Source: a virus
Lineage: Duplodnaviria > Heunggongvirae > Uroviricota > Caudoviricetes
DNA: 41,511 nucleotides
Direction: 5' to 3' (one strand)
IMG/VR virus record: IMGVR_UViG_2802429229_000003
Shown here: piece after piece, positions 23,535 through 29,732 of the stretch
Layout: each line of letters starts with the position of its first letter
How positions within the stretch are numbered: position 1 is the stretch's first letter
Notes under the pieces: generated by a model
The model's input: only the letters and a program-made list of their open reading frames with translations
What the model was told of the DNA's origin: nothing
Database searches by the model: none
Position numbers and translations under genes: made by a program

Positions 23535-23821
23535 AAATAACCTTCCTTTCTCCAGATTTCTTGTGTGCGAAAAACACCTTCTGCATGCATCAGGCGTAAT
23601 TCTTCTTTGGTGTAATCGCTGGTTTTTACCCGCCCGTCGATTAAATCGTGGCATGAGCTACAGGCAATCGCTGCCTGCATATCGTGTGGTTTTGTCGCTG
23701 TTCCGCACGTCCCCGCCAGCCTGTAATGCGCCAGCACAGATGTTTCGGGATTGTGATTGCAGTAGCCAGGAATTCTGACGGTGCACATCTGCCCCCGCGC
23801 CGCTTTACGTAAATCCACCAT
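23531..23821 (-). CDS. nin-region protein, 96 aa, Cys-rich (YbcO-like)
   Basis: Paired cysteines (CNHNPETSVLAHYRLAGTCGTATKPHDMQAAIACSSCHD); size and position as for ybcO-type genes upstream of Q. Confidence 0.5.
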   Translation of the reverse strand: MVDLRKAARGQMCTVRIPGYCNHNPETSVLAHYRLAGTCGTATKPHDMQAAIACSSCHDLIDGRVKTSDYTKEELRLMHAEGVFRTQEIWRKEGYL

Positions 23822-24420
23822 TACGCAAACTCCAGTAACTGTGCGGCCACATTTTCGACTTCCTCCGGAGAGGAAAATTTACGGAACAGGATCCAGTTCC
23901 ACAGCACATTCAGTACAGATTTATAAACCTGCTGAAACTCGGTTTCGTCCATGTTCGCAAAAGCGATGGATTTCGCCAGACGCCCATGGCTACCGTCCGG
24001 ATAAAAATGTTCGGTGTAAAATCCAGCCTGAATGGTTACCCACTCGCGAAAAGCCTCAAACGACTTTAGCAATGCCGTATCCCGGGTTCTGCGTGTCGCA
24101 ACTGTATTCAGATATTGCTCTGCGGCATCACTCAGGGCTGGCGTGTGTTCCCGACCAACTGATTCGCACAGGTAATCAACGAAACCAGACAGCAGTTCTC
24201 GTTCGCGAGGCGTGATCGCCCCACCGACCGGAGTCCAGTAATCGAATCCCAGTTGCAGGAGTTTGAAAAAACGCTTGTGGAATGCGTAGTTACGCACACG
24301 CTTAAAGTCTGCGTGTATCCACTCACCTATTTTGATTTGATGCAGAAAATCGCAACTCTCCGGCGTCGCCGGGAGAAGTAAACCAGAAGAAGTTTGTTTG
24401 ACCAGTTGTATATGCGCCAT
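23821..24420 (-). CDS. nin-region hypothetical protein, 199 aa
   Basis: ORF in the delayed-early operon upstream of Q; no motif recognised. Confidence 0.5.
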   Translation of the reverse strand: MAHIQLVKQTSSGLLLPATPESCDFLHQIKIGEWIHADFKRVRNYAFHKRFFKLLQLGFDYWTPVGGAITPRERELLSGFVDYLCESVGREHTPALSDAAEQYLNTVATRRTRDTALLKSFEAFREWVTIQAGFYTEHFYPDGSHGRLAKSIAFANMDETEFQQVYKSVLNVLWNWILFRKFSSPEEVENVAAQLLEFA

Positions 24421-24694
24421 TTCTCAATCTCTCGATGGCGCAGTGCAGCAGATGCCAGTTGTTCAGGCTGACGTATAAAGTATAAATAAACTGGTTCCAG
24501 TGTAAAGCCCCCACATTGATGGAATAAAAATCAAACAATAGATTGCTGGGATAAAATACAACGCTTATTATTAAAAGCGGTTAGACAAATTAAATTTTAA
24601 TGTTATGCAAATCTGCCAGATCAGCATAATATCTCATTTGAAAACCGCTGAAATAACAATCCTATCAGGATTAATCATATTAAGGTGAGTAAAT

Positions 24695-24781
24695 ATGGAA
24701 AACAACAAATCTGCACATTACGCTCCTTTTTTATCTGTAATACTTTTTGTTTTTTGCTGTGTATGGGCATTATTTTTATAA
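24695..24781 (+). CDS. Candidate small hydrophobic peptide, 28 aa (MENNKSAHYAPFLSVILFVFCCVWALFL)
   Basis: ATG at 24695 preceded by AAGGUGAG RBS at 5-nt spacing; single hydrophobic helix; in an AT-rich intergenic region. Below the ORF track cutoff. Confidence 0.3.
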   Translation: MENNKSAHYAPFLSVILFVFCCVWALFL

Positions 24782-24858
24782 AAATATTCACAGATAAAAT
24801 AAACTCGCCGAATCAGGTTAAGTGTGGGTGCGTTGAGGATGCCTGACACATCAGAGGC

Positions 24859-24880
24859 GGCGAGGGATTTCTCCCTCGCC
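24859..24880 (-). other. Stable 9-bp GC-rich hairpin at the 3' end of the hok transcript
   Basis: GGCGAGGGA-uuuc-UCCCUCGCC, about 10 nt after the hok stop. Confidence 0.5.
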
Positions 24881-24889
24881 TGGTCACTC

Positions 24890-25045
24890 TTACTCCTCAG
24901 GTTCGTAAGCTGTGAAGACAGCGACCTCCGTCTGACCGGTTCGGATTCGCACCTCGCAGAGGTCTTTCCTCGTTACCAGTGCCGTCACTATGACGGTTAA
25001 ACAGATGACAATCAGTGCGACTAACATCGCCTTTTGCTGCTTCAT
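24890..25045 (-). CDS. hok: Hok/Gef-family type I toxin, 51 aa
   Basis: MKQQKAMLVALIVICLTVIVTALVTRKDLCEVRIRTGQTEVAVFTAYEPEE: N-terminal TM helix and conserved RKDLCEVRIRTGQTEVAVF core. Confidence 0.85.
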   Translation of the reverse strand: MKQQKAMLVALIVICLTVIVTALVTRKDLCEVRIRTGQTEVAVFTAYEPEE

Positions 25046-25102
25046 AGCCTGCTTCTCCTTGCCTTCCGGCGCGTAAGAGGCTAACCTACATGTGCAAAGC
25101 AT
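24890..25102 (-). CDS. mok-like in-frame upstream extension of hok, 70 aa
   Basis: In-frame ATG at 25102 gives MLCTCRLASYAPEGKEKQA then the Hok sequence, the same arrangement as chromosomal mok/hok loci. Confidence 0.5.
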   Translation of the reverse strand: MLCTCRLASYAPEGKEKQAMKQQKAMLVALIVICLTVIVTALVTRKDLCEVRIRTGQTEVAVFTAYEPEE

Positions 25103-25260
25103 GAAATTGGCCTCAGATTAATGTTAAGCGTCTTGCCGGACGCGTAATGTTATCTGGGGCTTTTCTCTATCTGCCGTTGGTGTTCATGCCCGAGGCAGAT
25201 AGCCTCAAGCACCCGCAGCAATTCTACTTAACCCCCGTCACCTCGCCAATATAAAATCAA

Positions 25261-25479
25261 TCAGAAAGGCGATCCATAAGAACAACAGCAAGACAATAAA
25301 TTGCCATTACAGCCGCAATAGCTAGCGCACATTTGAGAACCAGCACGACAACCTCCTGTATTGGGCGTACACCAGTCCTGATAAATATGAGGATGTCTCG
25401 TCAGTGATTCAATGCAACTATTGGGTATAGTTTCTGTGATTTTGTTCTGTAGAAATGGAACACAACAACCAGTCACCAC
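25261..25479 (-). CDS. Doubtful small Cys-rich ORF, about 72 aa (11 Cys)
   Basis: GTG at 25479 preceded by AAGGAAG; lies between the KAP terminator and the hok locus. Could be non-coding hok leader. Confidence 0.15.
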   Translation of the reverse strand: MVTGCCVPFLQNKITETIPNSCIESLTRHPHIYQDWCTPNTGGCRAGSQMCASYCGCNGNLLSCCCSYGSPF

Positions 25480-25640
25480 CAGCACTTCCTTAAATGCTCT
25501 AAGTCAGAAACAAGCCAACATTTTAGTCCGCTTTGAGCGAAGAGCGGACGCTCGCATCTGTCCCAACACACTGAGGGCTTCACGAACACCTAGGTGTACT
25601 CGTCAACTGGGAAAAAGTCAGATTATCTGCGTAAGTTTCA

Positions 25641-25672
25641 GCGTAAAAATTGGGCACTATAAAAGTGCCCAA
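25641..25672 (-). terminator. Intrinsic terminator of the KAP NTPase gene (9-bp stem plus U5)
   Basis: Minus strand UUGGGCACU-uuuau-AGUGCCCAA followed by UUUUUACGC, starting about 22 nt after the KAP stop. Confidence 0.6.
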
Positions 25673-25693
25673 ACTGTAGAAAAATACATAATG

Positions 25694-28600
25694 CTATGTA
25701 TCTGAGCCAAACATAGAGCGCCGCCTTGTTATTTTATAATAAGTGGGATTTTCATTATCCACCTCAAAATCAGAGAAGAAGTGGTTATCTCTTAATGCTG
25801 TTAATAAACTTTGATTAGTTGAATCAACTTCAATTTTAGGTTTGCCTCGCCCCAAAATTTTACTGAACTCCGATAAACCAAGCAGATCAAGATACTCTTT
25901 GCAAGTCGTCTTACTCAAATCCTTACCCGGCAACAAAGCGATTAGCAGTGCTATTTTATTCTGCATATTCAGTCCCTCTGCGACAAACAGGTTTTTTAGT
26001 AACGGTTCAGAAACATCATTAGGACTTGCTATCAATGCTGATATATCCTGTATTGCTCGACTCAAGATGAGCGACTGAGTAGAGGTTCCCCAAGTTTTAT
26101 AAGATGACGTCAAGATTAGAAGTTCATCTGGTTTAAAATTATTTTCTAAAATATAGTCATTAACGACCTGAGAGTAATTCTTACTATAAATAGCCAACGG
26201 AGTTTTAACAAACTCGAGTAGCTTAACTTTCAAATCATCATCAACTTTCCAAGAAAGTATTGATATAGCCTCATCCAAAATAAAGTTATCAATCGTCATT
26301 AATTCAACGTATGCCCTGATATTCTTATGAATATAATAGGAAAGTTGCTCTGAATAGTTATCTCGTATGAAATTAAGTGGCGCAACATTCATACGAATAA
26401 TATTTTTATCCACTAATATTTTGAACTTATCACTCGCGATATTACTAGCGCTAAAGGATGTTTTACAAATAATATTTAGTGAGCAAATTAATTTTTCATA
26501 TTTATCATTTGATAAATCATTACAGATAACAATCGATTTAAATAATTTACCTTTAAGCTCGTTATCAATATTAATATTTTGAAAATTCAGGTCTACATCA
26601 GTTCTATTGATAAATTCGATAAGTGAGTCATCCAGTCCATCAACATGTTCAAAATAAGAGACAATATTTTCCTCAGAGCACACTGCTCTATCTTTATCCA
26701 ACAAAGATGACCATAAAGATTCGCTCTCAACCTCACTCAGAGATGTCACGAAAGTTTGCAAAGCGTTTATATACTGGCCTTTTTGTTCATCAGATATTCC
26801 CTCATTATTAAGAACGGATAAAACAATGGATTCATCATCCACGATTGAACCATCACAACTAGATAAAACCATATCCAGATAGTCCCTAATATGGTTATTA
26901 ACATAACTAGCCAAGGGAGAATCAGGTTGTGACATCACTAGTGTATAGTTCTTATGGCGAATATCATCTTCACTATTAAGCGTGTAAACCTTACTCAGCA
27001 TTAAGGTCAGGTTGGAAAAATTAATATCATAAAGTGAATGCTGGTAAACCGCATCAAAGAGTACTTTATTTGCGTTTTCAAATTTAATACTGACAAAAGA
27101 GACGTTAAGCAACTTAAAACCACTAATTAATTTGTCAACCTTCGGTTCTGATATTGCTAAATAACCTGCCGAATCAGAGATGTAATCAGTCAGACAATCA
27201 TCAATATTAATGGCCTCGATGGCGTCATTGGCAGAATAATAAAACGTGCCTATAGAGTAGAGTTTAACCCAATCAGCAGAAAATTCACTCTCTGTCAGCG
27301 CATAAGAAAAAAACTCAGGCCACTGTGTATTTAATCGATTAATGAAGACAGGCTGAGCCCTCTCAGTTTCAAAGTAACCACGAATAAACTCAACTCTTCT
27401 ATCTTTTCTTAGTTGTTTGAATAAACGTTTTATTAAGTTTACCTGGGCTGGCGTTTGAAGCAGATAAGCTAATAAATCAAAATTAAGCGCCTCTTCCTGT
27501 TCAAAATCCACTTCTCGAAGGCGGGCAACGACCAGCTTGGGGTTCTTGAGTTGATAAGTGAACTCTTTGCCTTTTTGATCGGTAATGCTGCGTAAAAACA
27601 TCTTATCAATTCGACTCAGGCTATTTTCATAAAAATAGGTCATATAGTCGGTATAGGTTTCATCAATATAACCATCACGAATAAGGTATTTAAGCAAGTC
27701 AAAATACTCACTGCTTTTTATTTCATTAAAGTCTCTTTCCTCTCCAATTTCATTGGTATAGGTGAGTTTAAATATTTCATCAATGTTTTCTCTAGTTATT
27801 ACTTCTTTAAGTCTTTTGTTTCTAAAATCAACCAAACTTTCTCTTGATCTTGATATAAGCTCATTAATTTCTTCTATTTTACCATTAAATTTATTTTCAA
27901 CACTTTCTTTTCTAGCCGCCCTTCTCTTTGCTATATCAGCTTTCTCAGCCTGATTATAGTGAGGATGATTATTATATCTAGATAATTCCTTATCGTATAT
28001 AGCATCAACCTCCTGACTAGAGTTGAGTATTTCATCATTGATTGCCTCAATCTCTTTTTTTCTATCTCTAATATCTTTTTCTATTTTCTTTATTTCTTCA
28101 ATAATAAGGTTGTCTTTTTCACTAAATATGGTATAAACCATACCTTGATTAAGTTGCAACTCACTAAAATCTCTTGGGAAAATATTCTTATAGGCAATAA
28201 TGGCCAACATTTTATTACAGTCAAGTTCTGTCGTGTTTAATTTGTTATAATAAATTTGAAATTCGTTATAAATATTCTTCAATATTCTCATATCATCAAT
28301 ATATAAAGACATCCCTTGTAGAAATCTTTCATTGAACAACTTGAGAATACCACCACCATCAAAATGTGTGATAAACTGATCGTAAGAGTTAGAACTATCA
28401 ACAACAGGAATAACTGGAATGATATAATCAAAGAATTTGGTTCTATCCTTCGAAATGAAGATATCATCACGAAGCAAGTAAATAAAACGTAACGTCGATT
28501 TCTTGTGCCCTGCTGTGTCCCGTTGAATATTAACCAGTCTGTTAACCTCATGAAGACGTTCAAAGATGTTATTACTATTAAAACGGTCCATGTCTTCAAA

Positions 28601-29326
28601 AACAATGGCATCAGCATCAACGTTCTCGAAAAGGTACAATACTTCATTTAAATATCTATCGAAATAAGACTCGTTACTTTCTTCAAAAATCTCTATTTCA
28701 TTACCCTGTAAATTTATTTTCTTAAGAACATTACGATTCTTTTGGGTTTTTATTAACTTGTAAATGAAAATACAAGATAGGATAGTACATATAAACCCAC
28801 TAATTAAAAGCGTATCGTATTTAGTTGATAATGTAAGTAGTGTCTTTATATTACCTTCAGATAAAAGTGAAACAAACTTTTCCCACTTATTAAATAGCGT
28901 GATATGTAGTATCATAGCGATAAATAACACCGTAAAGATGGTGTTTATCACAATGTTGTTAGTTTTTATTTTTTTCTTTACTTTAAAATGTGTCTGGGGA
29001 ATATCATCAGCATTAATTTGGTGAATTAACTGGTTAAGAACTTTACCTTCTAACGCGGTTTCATTTATATCTTTACTTGGTTCATTAGTTTCAGCTTCCT
29101 CAATCGATCTGAAATGAGCAAGTGAGATATGAACAAACTTTATATTTGAATGACTTTTCTTATAGGATTCGATAAGACTACTTTTTCCTGCGCTATATTG
29201 CCCTGATATCGCAACATTTTTTAGATCGTTATTGGCAAAAACAAAATCTATCGCATTTTTATATACACCCAGCTCAACATCGCTGAACGGCGTTAACTTT
29301 TGAAATTTATAGCTATCATCACTCAT
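25694..29326 (-). CDS. KAP-family P-loop NTPase, 1210 aa, with two transmembrane helices inserted between Walker A and Walker B; AT-rich moron
   Basis: Walker A GQYSAGKSS (aa 42-50, nt 29177-29203); hydrophobic helices at aa ~123-145 and ~172-192; Walker B DAIVFEDMDR (aa 239-248, nt 28583-28612); about 950-aa C-terminal region with a coiled-coil-like stretch. RBS GGGAAGGGA before ATG at 29326. Sampled lines about 25-30% GC. Confidence 0.8.
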   Translation of the reverse strand: MSDDSYKFQKLTPFSDVELGVYKNAIDFVFANNDLKNVAISGQYSAGKSSLIESYKKSHSNIKFVHISLAHFRSIEEAETNEPSKDINETALEGKVLNQLIHQINADDIPQTHFKVKKKIKTNNIVINTIFTVLFIAMILHITLFNKWEKFVSLLSEGNIKTLLTLSTKYDTLLISGFICTILSCIFIYKLIKTQKNRNVLKKINLQGNEIEIFEESNESYFDRYLNEVLYLFENVDADAIVFEDMDRFNSNNIFERLHEVNRLVNIQRDTAGHKKSTLRFIYLLRDDIFISKDRTKFFDYIIPVIPVVDSSNSYDQFITHFDGGGILKLFNERFLQGMSLYIDDMRILKNIYNEFQIYYNKLNTTELDCNKMLAIIAYKNIFPRDFSELQLNQGMVYTIFSEKDNLIIEEIKKIEKDIRDRKKEIEAINDEILNSSQEVDAIYDKELSRYNNHPHYNQAEKADIAKRRAARKESVENKFNGKIEEINELISRSRESLVDFRNKRLKEVITRENIDEIFKLTYTNEIGEERDFNEIKSSEYFDLLKYLIRDGYIDETYTDYMTYFYENSLSRIDKMFLRSITDQKGKEFTYQLKNPKLVVARLREVDFEQEEALNFDLLAYLLQTPAQVNLIKRLFKQLRKDRRVEFIRGYFETERAQPVFINRLNTQWPEFFSYALTESEFSADWVKLYSIGTFYYSANDAIEAINIDDCLTDYISDSAGYLAISEPKVDKLISGFKLLNVSFVSIKFENANKVLFDAVYQHSLYDINFSNLTLMLSKVYTLNSEDDIRHKNYTLVMSQPDSPLASYVNNHIRDYLDMVLSSCDGSIVDDESIVLSVLNNEGISDEQKGQYINALQTFVTSLSEVESESLWSSLLDKDRAVCSEENIVSYFEHVDGLDDSLIEFINRTDVDLNFQNINIDNELKGKLFKSIVICNDLSNDKYEKLICSLNIICKTSFSASNIASDKFKILVDKNIIRMNVAPLNFIRDNYSEQLSYYIHKNIRAYVELMTIDNFILDEAISILSWKVDDDLKVKLLEFVKTPLAIYSKNYSQVVNDYILENNFKPDELLILTSSYKTWGTSTQSLILSRAIQDISALIASPNDVSEPLLKNLFVAEGLNMQNKIALLIALLPGKDLSKTTCKEYLDLLGLSEFSKILGRGKPKIEVDSTNQSLLTALRDNHFFSDFEVDNENPTYYKITRRRSMFGSDT

Positions 29327-29732
29327 TGATATCCCTTCCCAATCTTCACCGAGAGAGCTGGCTTTCGGAGTTAATCAAACAAAATCATGCAGATAAAATT
29401 TCGCCTTATTATAGCAGACACAACTGCAAAGATTAGCTAAAGCCTCGTTGTTTTCTTCATCTATCCCTATAATTTTACACTACAGTTAGCACTTACTATA
29501 CCTGAAAGCTTTGCTCGTAAAGAGCACAATCGCAAGTCAGCAAAGCACGACTTTGCAATCGAGCGCCGCTAAAACAGTGCTGAATCGCTACGACTTAGGC
29601 AGCCATCTTATCGGTTGGCAGATAATTTCTAACTTCCGCTTCTGGCACAAAGCGGACAACCACGCTAGCTCTCCCCTGTGCCAGAAAAATGTCAATTTAC
29701 ATATGAACTAATGCTCTTTGATCTAGTAACGT

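Follow-up and report, generated by a model that had tools for sequence, protein, structure and literature searches.

In this study, we examined a 28-codon open reading frame (ORF) in the DNA of a virus of the Caudoviricetes (IMG/VR virus record IMGVR_UViG_2802429229_000003), whose whole stretch of 41,511 nucleotides is referred to here as the window. The wider context of the ORF is that of a lambdoid/Rac-like prophage read on the minus strand, in which replication genes (DUF1376, DnaC-like), DUF1627, DUF977 and a YobI/Tmn-like NTPase are followed by hok/sok, the gap that holds the ORF, DUF1367, YbcO and a DUF1133 Q-like protein. The gap measures 469 bp and separates the DUF1367 gene (23821-24420, minus strand) from hok, which is likewise on the minus strand. 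Its GC content is 0.29-0.31 at 24500-24800 as against 0.45-0.55 in the flanks, and the ORF lies in it on the + strand, opposing the flanking operon. An initial annotation of this DNA had placed here an ATG at 24695 opening a frame of 28 codons, with a strong ribosome-binding site at good spacing, in an AT-rich gap of about 470 bp between hok and what it called the nin genes; start, length, ribosome-binding site and gap are as it described them, and the nin genes in question are DUF1367, YbcO/DUF1364 and the DUF1133 Q-like protein. The comparison of related loci presented here makes it very likely that the ORF is a genuine small-protein gene under purifying selection.

The predicted product has two parts. 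Residues 1-9 form a polar head with a mean Kyte-Doolittle value of -1.78, and residues 10-28 form a strongly hydrophobic stretch of 19 residues with a mean of 2.57, which reaches the C-terminus (...CCVWALFL), so that the sole polar stretch of the peptide is N-terminal. The earlier description of the product as essentially one transmembrane helix is borne out by this hydropathy profile. Upstream of the ATG, the Shine-Dalgarno (SD) sequence has the core AGGTGA, which is complementary to the 3' end of 16S rRNA. The mere existence of an ORF of this size is not beyond chance in AT-rich DNA: an ATG-initiated ORF of at least 28 codons was present in 55% of shuffles of the region 24470-24810. The case for a gene therefore rests on comparative evidence.

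Three samples of related loci were used. The first comprised 200 copies found with a degenerate ORF pattern, which constrains codons 1-14; the second comprised 192 copies anchored on a conserved block upstream of the ORF rather than on the ORF; and the third comprised 80 loci anchored on the DUF1367 protein. The copies found with the pattern are without exception 28 codons long, and they represent 15 peptide variants and 21-22 DNA haplotypes. In the block-anchored sample the 28-codon ORF is intact in 191 of 192 copies, new variants such as A7V and F12S included; the lone exception (L009, from strain PK8566) has an IS1 element (IS1X2) inserted in codon 9, at 1722-1745 of that locus and onward. 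The DUF1367-anchored sample yielded 55 loci with an intact copy and 25 without the cassette that carries the ORF, and no decayed copy was seen among these 80. Across all 23 ORF haplotypes only frame +0 is open throughout, every other frame being closed in some of them; an antisense ORF of 38 aa (24675-24791) was considered and rejected, as stops close its frame in most haplotypes. The initial annotation had named loss of the reading frame in homologous regions as the outcome that would speak against a gene. We looked for it and found frame, length, start and SD kept in every clade.

The copies were compared as clades A, B and C and an L006 type. Within clade A most copies differ by few bases; between clades A, B and C, 13-15 of the 87 ORF positions differ, with a proportion of synonymous differences (pS) of 0.4-0.6. 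Between clades the ORF shows 83-85% identity without a single indel, and the 5' untranslated region (UTR) beside it is 57-63% identical with 5-7 gapped positions. The segment from SD to ATG is 80-88% identical between clades, as against the 57-63% of the adjacent UTR. The SD itself reads TTAAGGTG in clades A and B, TTAAGGTA in clade C and, in a weaker form, TTAAAGTG in the L006 type, the corresponding hexamers being AAGGTG, AAGGTA and AAAGTG, and the ATG is invariant. Variable sites are distributed over the first, second and third codon positions as 6, 7 and 18 (binomial P=0.004). The Nei-Gojobori dN/dS between clades is 0.06-0.4, where the values for clade C are biased over codons 1-14, the residues of which were fixed by the search pattern. 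Clade B was found by blastn and the A-B comparison is therefore unbiased; it gives seven synonymous and seven nonsynonymous changes on 16.5 and 67.5 sites, respectively (Fisher p=0.006). Among the peptide variants the Met-Glu-Asn-Asn start, His8, Pro11, Cys21, Trp24 and Phe27-Leu28 are invariant or nearly so, and the replacements in the helix are conservative (V/I/A and F/L/C). Over its last 18 nt the ORF hardly varies, even at synonymous sites. It is the conservation of frame, length, start and SD, taken together with the excess of synonymous changes, that leads us to regard the ORF as a genuine small-protein gene.

This gene is widespread in Escherichia coli. Matches to a 336-bp AT-rich segment occur in 1196 of 5426 complete E. 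coli genomes (~22%), with identities from 100% down to ~71%, and 1163 of the matches cover at least 80% of the segment. The genomic copies number roughly 1270; the median number per genome is one and the maximum three, in separate prophages, with one copy per locus. When the degenerate ORF pattern was run against 185,579 species representatives, it matched Shigella flexneri and Escherichia ruysiae only, and no homologue outside Escherichia/Shigella was found; it also matched at least 120 contigs from viruses and 69 from metagenomes. Four E. coli phage records contain the ORF, and no true plasmid does. Among the strains that carry it are TUM9757, which is identical to the window, ECCHD184 and ATCC 43886. 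K-12 is without the cassette, as Qin has rem at the same position and Rac has no match, and small-protein surveys of K-12 therefore never saw the peptide. An annotated K-12 counterpart in Qin or Rac, ynfS-like or other, was considered and does not exist. No RefSeq feature lies under the ORF, either in match listings of 30 and 60 rows or in nine fetched regions, and the four GenBank phage records leave it unannotated as well. The ORF is also found intact in a decayed prophage remnant that is present in many E. coli genomes (L002-type loci, e.g. NZ_CP033250.1 2178550-2185009); here the order is DUF1133, DUF1364, DUF1367, cassette and hokD, and the remnant adjoins an MFS transporter gene, a junction that we take to be the Qin/ydfJ site.

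Family searches gave no known relative. Pfam, NCBIfam, PHROGs and PADLOC contained no peptide family above noise, the PDB held no relative, and the exact peptides were absent from a collection of 15 billion proteins. An exhaustive phmmer search with the 30-residue read-through of the window against 1.84 billion representatives returned two proteins, both of which are miscalls of the same locus, and these are the sole versions of the locus picked up by gene callers. In the first (P0001, 58 aa) the in-frame TGA upstream of the ORF (24686-24688 in the window) is mutated, and a 27-codon upstream ORF is fused to the ORF. The second (P0002, 36 aa) has a frameshift in the T-run of codons 18-20 and with it a different C-terminus. 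The possibility of a lipoprotein was raised by a match to NCBIfam Lp6.6 (E=0.046, 13.9 bits against a cutoff of 35) and was rejected: clade A, which reads F-V-F/L-C with a bulky residue at -1, has no lipobox (L-[ASTV]-[GAS]-C), and only some clade B variants (LFAC, FAGC) resemble one. In the literature the peptide string occurs in no paper, and the papers found on DUF1367 were irrelevant.

The limits within which homology is kept define the cassette (Table 1). Two clade C loci, L111 and L162, share neither flank with the window and lie beside a tail-fibre gene and beside a trkG-like gene; BLAST homology to them covers exactly 24564-24786 with 78.6% identity. Homology to clade B ends at 24782 and that to L100 covers 24549-24782; in clades B and C it stops 1-5 nt past the stop codon. 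As the same limits recur in unrelated contexts, the cassette is an autonomous unit.

Table 1. Features of the cassette and of the neighbouring hok/sok module; positions are those of the window
Feature	Position	Strand	Remarks
Minimal conserved cassette (~220 bp)	24564-24786	+	Upstream block, promoter-like elements, 5' UTR, SD and ORF
AT-rich block 1, GCTTATTATTAAAAGCGGTTAGACAAATTAAATTTTAATGTTATG	24563-24607		87-91% identical between clades, no indels
Candidate sense promoter core, ATGTTATG-17 nt-CATAATAT	24600-24632	+	Fixed spacing; predicted start near 24639-24641
Small 5' UTR hairpin, AAUCC-UAUCA-GGAUU	24658-24672	+	Predicted fold
SD sequence, AAGGTGAG	24682-24689	+	5 nt 5' of the ATG
28-codon ORF	24695-24781	+	ATG at 24695, TAA ending at 24781; product MENNKSAHYAPFLSVILFVFCCVWALFL
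Antisense promoter-like site, TTTCCA-16-TATGAT	24674-24701	-	9/12; RNA start predicted near 24667
Weak hairpin, CGCUU-8-nt loop-AAGCG	24562-24579	-	Terminator-like match; U-rich tract follows in clades A and B
hok/sok module	24890-25214	-	hok CDS 24890-25045; Rfam sok 25040-25214; cargo, outside the cassette

Upstream of the ORF, two conserved elements are separated by a spacer that is exactly 17 nt long in clades A, B and C and only 47-53% identical in sequence. A sigma-70 promoter shows this pattern, with conserved elements kept at a constant distance while the spacer is free to vary, and we infer that this is the sense promoter of the cassette. It can be read as a -35 element TATGCA (24604-24609) and a -10 element TAATAT (24627-24632). 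The -10-like octamer (CATAAYAT/CATAGCAT) is 75-88% identical between clades, and the -10 element varies between TAATAT, TAACAT and TAGCAT with T1, A2, A5 and T6 kept. Block 1 would then provide a UP-element-like and -35 region, and it may possibly also be a site for a regulator or for H-NS. An alternative promoter within block 1, TTATTA (24568-24573)-17 nt-TAAATT (24591-24596), has the same score of 7/12. Between the octamer and the SD lies the divergent 5' UTR of ~47-52 nt. Its small hairpin shows a double change to AACCC/GGGTT within clade A (L005) and is not conserved in clades B and C; the single-sequence fold of the sense strand has a z-score of -1.6. The SD has an unpaired probability of 0.26-0.48, and the predicted folds differ from clade to clade. 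Long-range sequestration of the SD by 24803-24809 was considered and rejected, since those nucleotides are part of the hok module and are missing where the context is a different one.

Two further observations concern the upstream part of the cassette. At 24583-24592 in block 1, clades B and C and the L006 type read TTAGATAAATTA, which contains GATAAATT, the core of the high-affinity H-NS motif tCGATAAATT; this hints that the AT-rich cassette might be silenced by H-NS. The inverted repeats that had been described as flanking the ORF do not do so: the arms AGCGGTT (24577-24583) and AACCGCT (24643-24649) both lie 5' of it, and their complementarity is gone in clades B and C and in L006-type copies. 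We attribute this repeat to chance, as by our own estimate several 7-nt repeats are expected within 470 bp.

The surroundings of the cassette vary. Among 193 loci there are four upstream contexts and nine unrelated downstream contexts, of which hok/sok, with or without the Tmn-like NTPase, accounts for 112 loci, a DUF1971-type segment for 43 and IetAS for 19, the others including AbiL-like genes and IS elements. The neighbouring module in the window matches Pfam HOK_GEF (7.6e-24) and Rfam sok (111 bits), and RefSeq annotates hokD. The link of the cassette to hok is incidental, because the downstream context is something other than hok at 81 of the 193 loci. Conversely, hok occurs without the cassette in K-12 and in L246-type and L272-type loci. 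Among syntenic prophages the cassette is either present or absent, and some of the loci that lack it have a rem-like gene, another gene or a direct junction to hok. In A- and B-type prophages the cassette lies directly upstream, in the sense of phage transcription, of the first nin-like gene, which is DUF1367 or rem-like. It is thus the constant nin-side edge of a hotspot of anti-phage cargo.

In the window this hotspot extends over ~24790-29700, from the DUF977/DUF1627 end of the replication module to the cassette, and it has equivalents in loci L005, L016, L026, L029, L074, L082 and L121, where the contents alternate between hok/sok, the Tmn-like NTPase, IetA+IetS, AbiL-like ATPase pairs, a DUF1971 gene and IS elements. 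One gene of the hotspot in the window encodes a 1210-aa protein (25694-29326, minus strand), a YobI-like P-loop NTPase (PF20693, 1.7e-122; PADLOC Tmn, 2e-66); this gene is AT-rich (GC 0.24-0.40) and is probably anti-phage cargo of this prophage. Between it and hok/sok lies a second unannotated hydrophobic ORF of 29 aa, MLVLKCALAIAAVMAIYCLAVVLMDRLSD (25257-25346, minus strand), with a GTG start 6 nt after AGGAGG. Related translations are found in ~100 fetched loci, some of them truncated or frameshifted; the ORF has no NCBIfam family, is absent from K-12 Qin and Rac and is unannotated in the identical RefSeq region. On the other side of the cassette, ~60 nt upstream of the DUF1367 start, a promoter-like sequence TTTACA-16-TATACT (24479-24506, minus strand, 10/12) may be an internal promoter for the nin-like/Q genes, and the segment 24445-24515 is also conserved upstream of the rem-like gene in L006-type prophages.

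Morons are autonomous promoter-gene-terminator insertions in lambdoid phages, such as bor and lom of lambda, and the superinfection-exclusion protein gp15 of HK97 is another example of a moron product. We propose that the cassette is an autonomous moron that encodes a single-pass inner-membrane peptide acting on a membrane partner in the lysogen, a proposal to which we give about an even chance of being right. According to this model, transcription would run on the + strand, against the early-right operon of the phage, from the cassette's own promoter within 24564-24640, with a predicted start near 24639-24641 or else near 24603. This promoter would be made up of the AT-rich UP-like block and weak -35 and -10 hexamers at the fixed 17-nt spacing. 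With its own promoter, the gene would be expressed in the lysogen independently of prophage induction, and lysogen expression seems probable to us. The tail-anchored peptide of 28 residues would insert into the inner membrane with its N terminus in and its C terminus out, so that the polar MENNK.AH head would be cytoplasmic, residues 10-28 would lie in the membrane, and the invariant Cys21 and Trp24 would be placed towards the periplasmic side. There it would bind a host or phage membrane protein, and the conserved polar head suggests a specific partner. Rather than killing as a classical toxin-antitoxin system does, it might serve superinfection exclusion or modulate a transporter or an entry channel. 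We count against a classical toxin the strong SD, the lack of a conserved sequestering fold, of a polar tail and of a tandem copy. That the cassette lies at the fixed edge of the hotspot and persists in decayed prophages suggests that lysogens benefit from it.

Several observations weigh against this proposal. The status of the ORF as a gene comes from comparison, and K-12, the strain used for small-protein mapping, does not carry the cassette. Apart from the bias of the clade C values noted above, the synonymous excess is merely suggestive when codons 15-28 are taken on their own (p=0.04-0.11). Natural knock-outs exist, namely the IS1 insertion in L009, an IS truncation in L251 and L256, and the frameshift allele P0002; in the two viral contigs L251 and L256, an IS-linked truncation upstream of DUF1367 removes both block and ORF, and the IS events are independent. 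The sense hexamers match the consensus at 7 of 12 positions, and a promoter scan reports no + strand promoter. Of the promoter matches in the cassette, on whichever strand, the antisense site is the best, which favours a toxin-antitoxin module. A terminator scan finds no + strand terminator within the conserved unit, and termination on this strand would depend on the context. Finally, guilt by association yields no candidate partner protein, as the flanking genes vary.

The alternative that survives best is that the cassette is a new type I toxin-antitoxin module, in which the peptide would be a toxin that damages the membrane and its mRNA would be countered by a cis-antisense RNA of ~115 nt. 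We consider this possible but doubtful. Starting near 24667, the RNA would cross the 5' UTR and then the sense promoter, with its 3' end at the hairpin and U tract (24579-24552). The two promoters would stand face to face, and the RNA would act either by pairing with the leader of the mRNA or by interfering with transcription on the sense strand. A two-gene unit would thus be bounded by the limits of the cassette, namely the stop codon of the ORF on one side and the hairpin on the other, and the left edge of the mobile unit does coincide with the hairpin. The antisense promoter-like site has its -35 element within codons 1-2 and its -10 element immediately 5' of the SD. In clades A, B and C and in the L006 type it reaches 9/12 at an unchanged position, despite a -10 element that reads TATGAT, AATAAT or CATAAT and a spacer of 15 or 16 nt. 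However, the Met-Glu-Asn codons fix its -35 element in any case, A/T-rich hexamers are common 5' of SD sequences, and the number of promoter-like sites in the region, two as against 1.2 +/- 1.2 in shuffles, is that expected by chance. The hairpin keeps its pairs on the minus strand as G-C, G-U or A-U, where the + strand equivalents are A-C mismatches, and it could terminate either an antisense RNA or early transcription that enters the cassette; but its stem consists of five AU-rich pairs, clade C lacks the U tract, and its covariation is no better than that of column shuffles (138-248 of 500), for which reason we rejected covariation as proof of an antisense RNA. The single-sequence fold of the antisense strand has a z-score of -2.4 and the conservation of block 1 goes beyond what a simple promoter needs, yet the consensus fold reaches merely -4.4 kcal/mol, and the Rfam search reports sok next door and no family at the cassette. 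A direct repeat suggestive of a trans-acting partner was not found either.

The peptide itself can be judged by the type I toxin criteria of Fozo et al. (2010; PMC2887945), according to which such toxins have at most 70 aa with a predicted transmembrane helix and a polar, charged or aromatic C-terminal tail, tandem duplication within one intergenic region being frequent and not obligatory. With 28 aa, a transmembrane helix and an isolated intergenic location, the peptide resembles these toxins, and a small one-helix hydrophobic product from a long AT-rich gap, unannotated and, like zorO, absent from K-12, is what this alternative would lead one to expect (PMC2887945). Against it, a polar, charged or aromatic tail is lacking at the C-terminus, the locus is never tandemly duplicated, there is no family homology and no similarity to the Hok, Ldr, Ibs, TisB, ShoB, Zor or DinQ models, and the strong SD is not consistently sequestered. 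The suggestion in the initial annotation that the product has the format of type I toxins and small membrane regulators is thus apt as a generic label, but its specific reading as a toxin is doubtful. If the toxin reading were to hold, the cassette would be the founding member of a type I family of Escherichia/Shigella prophages, a two-gene unit of ~220 bp that hops between cargo hotspots, which we put forward only tentatively.

It is improbable, in our judgement, that the cassette is a cis-acting DNA or RNA element at the junction of the cargo hotspot and the nin-like/Q genes, to which the peptide would be incidental. Such an element might be a convergent promoter that insulates from, or interferes with, read-through from pR or the cargo, a minus-strand attenuator similar to tR2, or a promoter feeding DUF1367-Q. 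The constant position directly upstream of the first nin-like gene in A- and B-type prophages would suit this idea, as would the conservation of block 1 (87-91%), which is at least as good as that of the ORF, the near invariance of the last 18 nt of the ORF even at synonymous sites, and the direction of the minus-strand sites 24701->24674 and 24506->24479 (10/12) and of the terminator-like hairpin, all of which point towards DUF1367-Q. However, a cis-acting element leaves unexplained the third-position bias, the low dN/dS, the conserved SD and ATG, the conservative hydrophobic replacements and 87 indel-free nucleotides beside an indel-rich UTR, and the clade C cassette lies away from any nin-like gene, near tail-fibre and trkG-like genes. 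A chance ORF in an AT-rich spacer, whose conserved look would come from the recent spread of a prophage segment with no time to decay, is very improbable and already disfavoured: the frequency of such ORFs in shuffles and the small differences among most clade A copies would agree with it, but the divergence between clades A, B and C (13-15 of 87 positions, pS 0.4-0.6) left ample time for stops and indels, of which there are none, the UTR between the same clades did acquire indels, other frames are closed in some haplotypes, and SD and ATG are kept in all clades.

Whichever of the functional readings is correct, a membrane-peptide gene that appears to be under selection is present in ~22% of complete E. 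coli genomes as well as in Shigella flexneri and E. ruysiae, and no annotation pipeline or family database records its product. The hotspot at whose edge it lies swaps anti-phage cargo such as hok/sok, the Tmn-like NTPase, IetAS and AbiL-like genes, and the cassette may bear on phage exclusion, prophage maintenance or the membrane physiology of the lysogen. The peptide may be a toxin restrained by an antisense RNA or a harmless membrane modulator, and either outcome, a new toxin family or a new membrane modulator, would add a family. The peptide does constitute a new family; small hydrophobic prophage peptides are already known, so that it is no conceptual surprise.

With the one-helix type I toxins encoded on Escherichia chromosomes (ShoB, ZorO/ZorP, DinQ, TisB and Ibs), the peptide shares a length of ~20-30 residues, a single helix, an AT-rich intergenic location and the fact that annotation has missed it; like zorO, its gene is strain-variable and absent from K-12, and as in type I toxins an antisense promoter-like site overlaps the translation start (PMC2887945). 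It differs from the type I toxins in having no sequence similarity to them, in that its polar segment is N-terminal, in never being tandem, in being prophage-borne and horizontally mobile, and in that the cassette has no conserved fold that sequesters the SD. As a single-pass protein of fewer than 50 residues with a strong SD, a conserved polar head and, very likely, purifying selection, the peptide is also similar to small inner-membrane regulators of enterobacteria such as MgtS, AcrZ, KdpF, PmrR, MgrB and CydX. These regulators are encoded by core-genome genes in defined regulons or operons, and their partner complexes are known. In contrast, the ORF described here is located on a mobile 220-bp prophage cassette, has no fixed neighbour and shows no homology to them.

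With morons, the cassette has in common its insertion between genes of a phage operon, its atypical GC content, its independent orientation and a polymorphic presence, which is discrete and has sharp limits. Unlike the morons described so far, it is much smaller, its promoter is inferred from the pattern of conservation, and it has no recognisable terminator, none being present on the + strand inside the unit. Hok/sok is likewise a membrane-peptide gene in this intergenic neighbourhood, and it is under the control of an antisense RNA; the two are unrelated in sequence and form separate modules. In addition, unlike the cargos that alternate within the hotspot, the cassette marks its constant edge.

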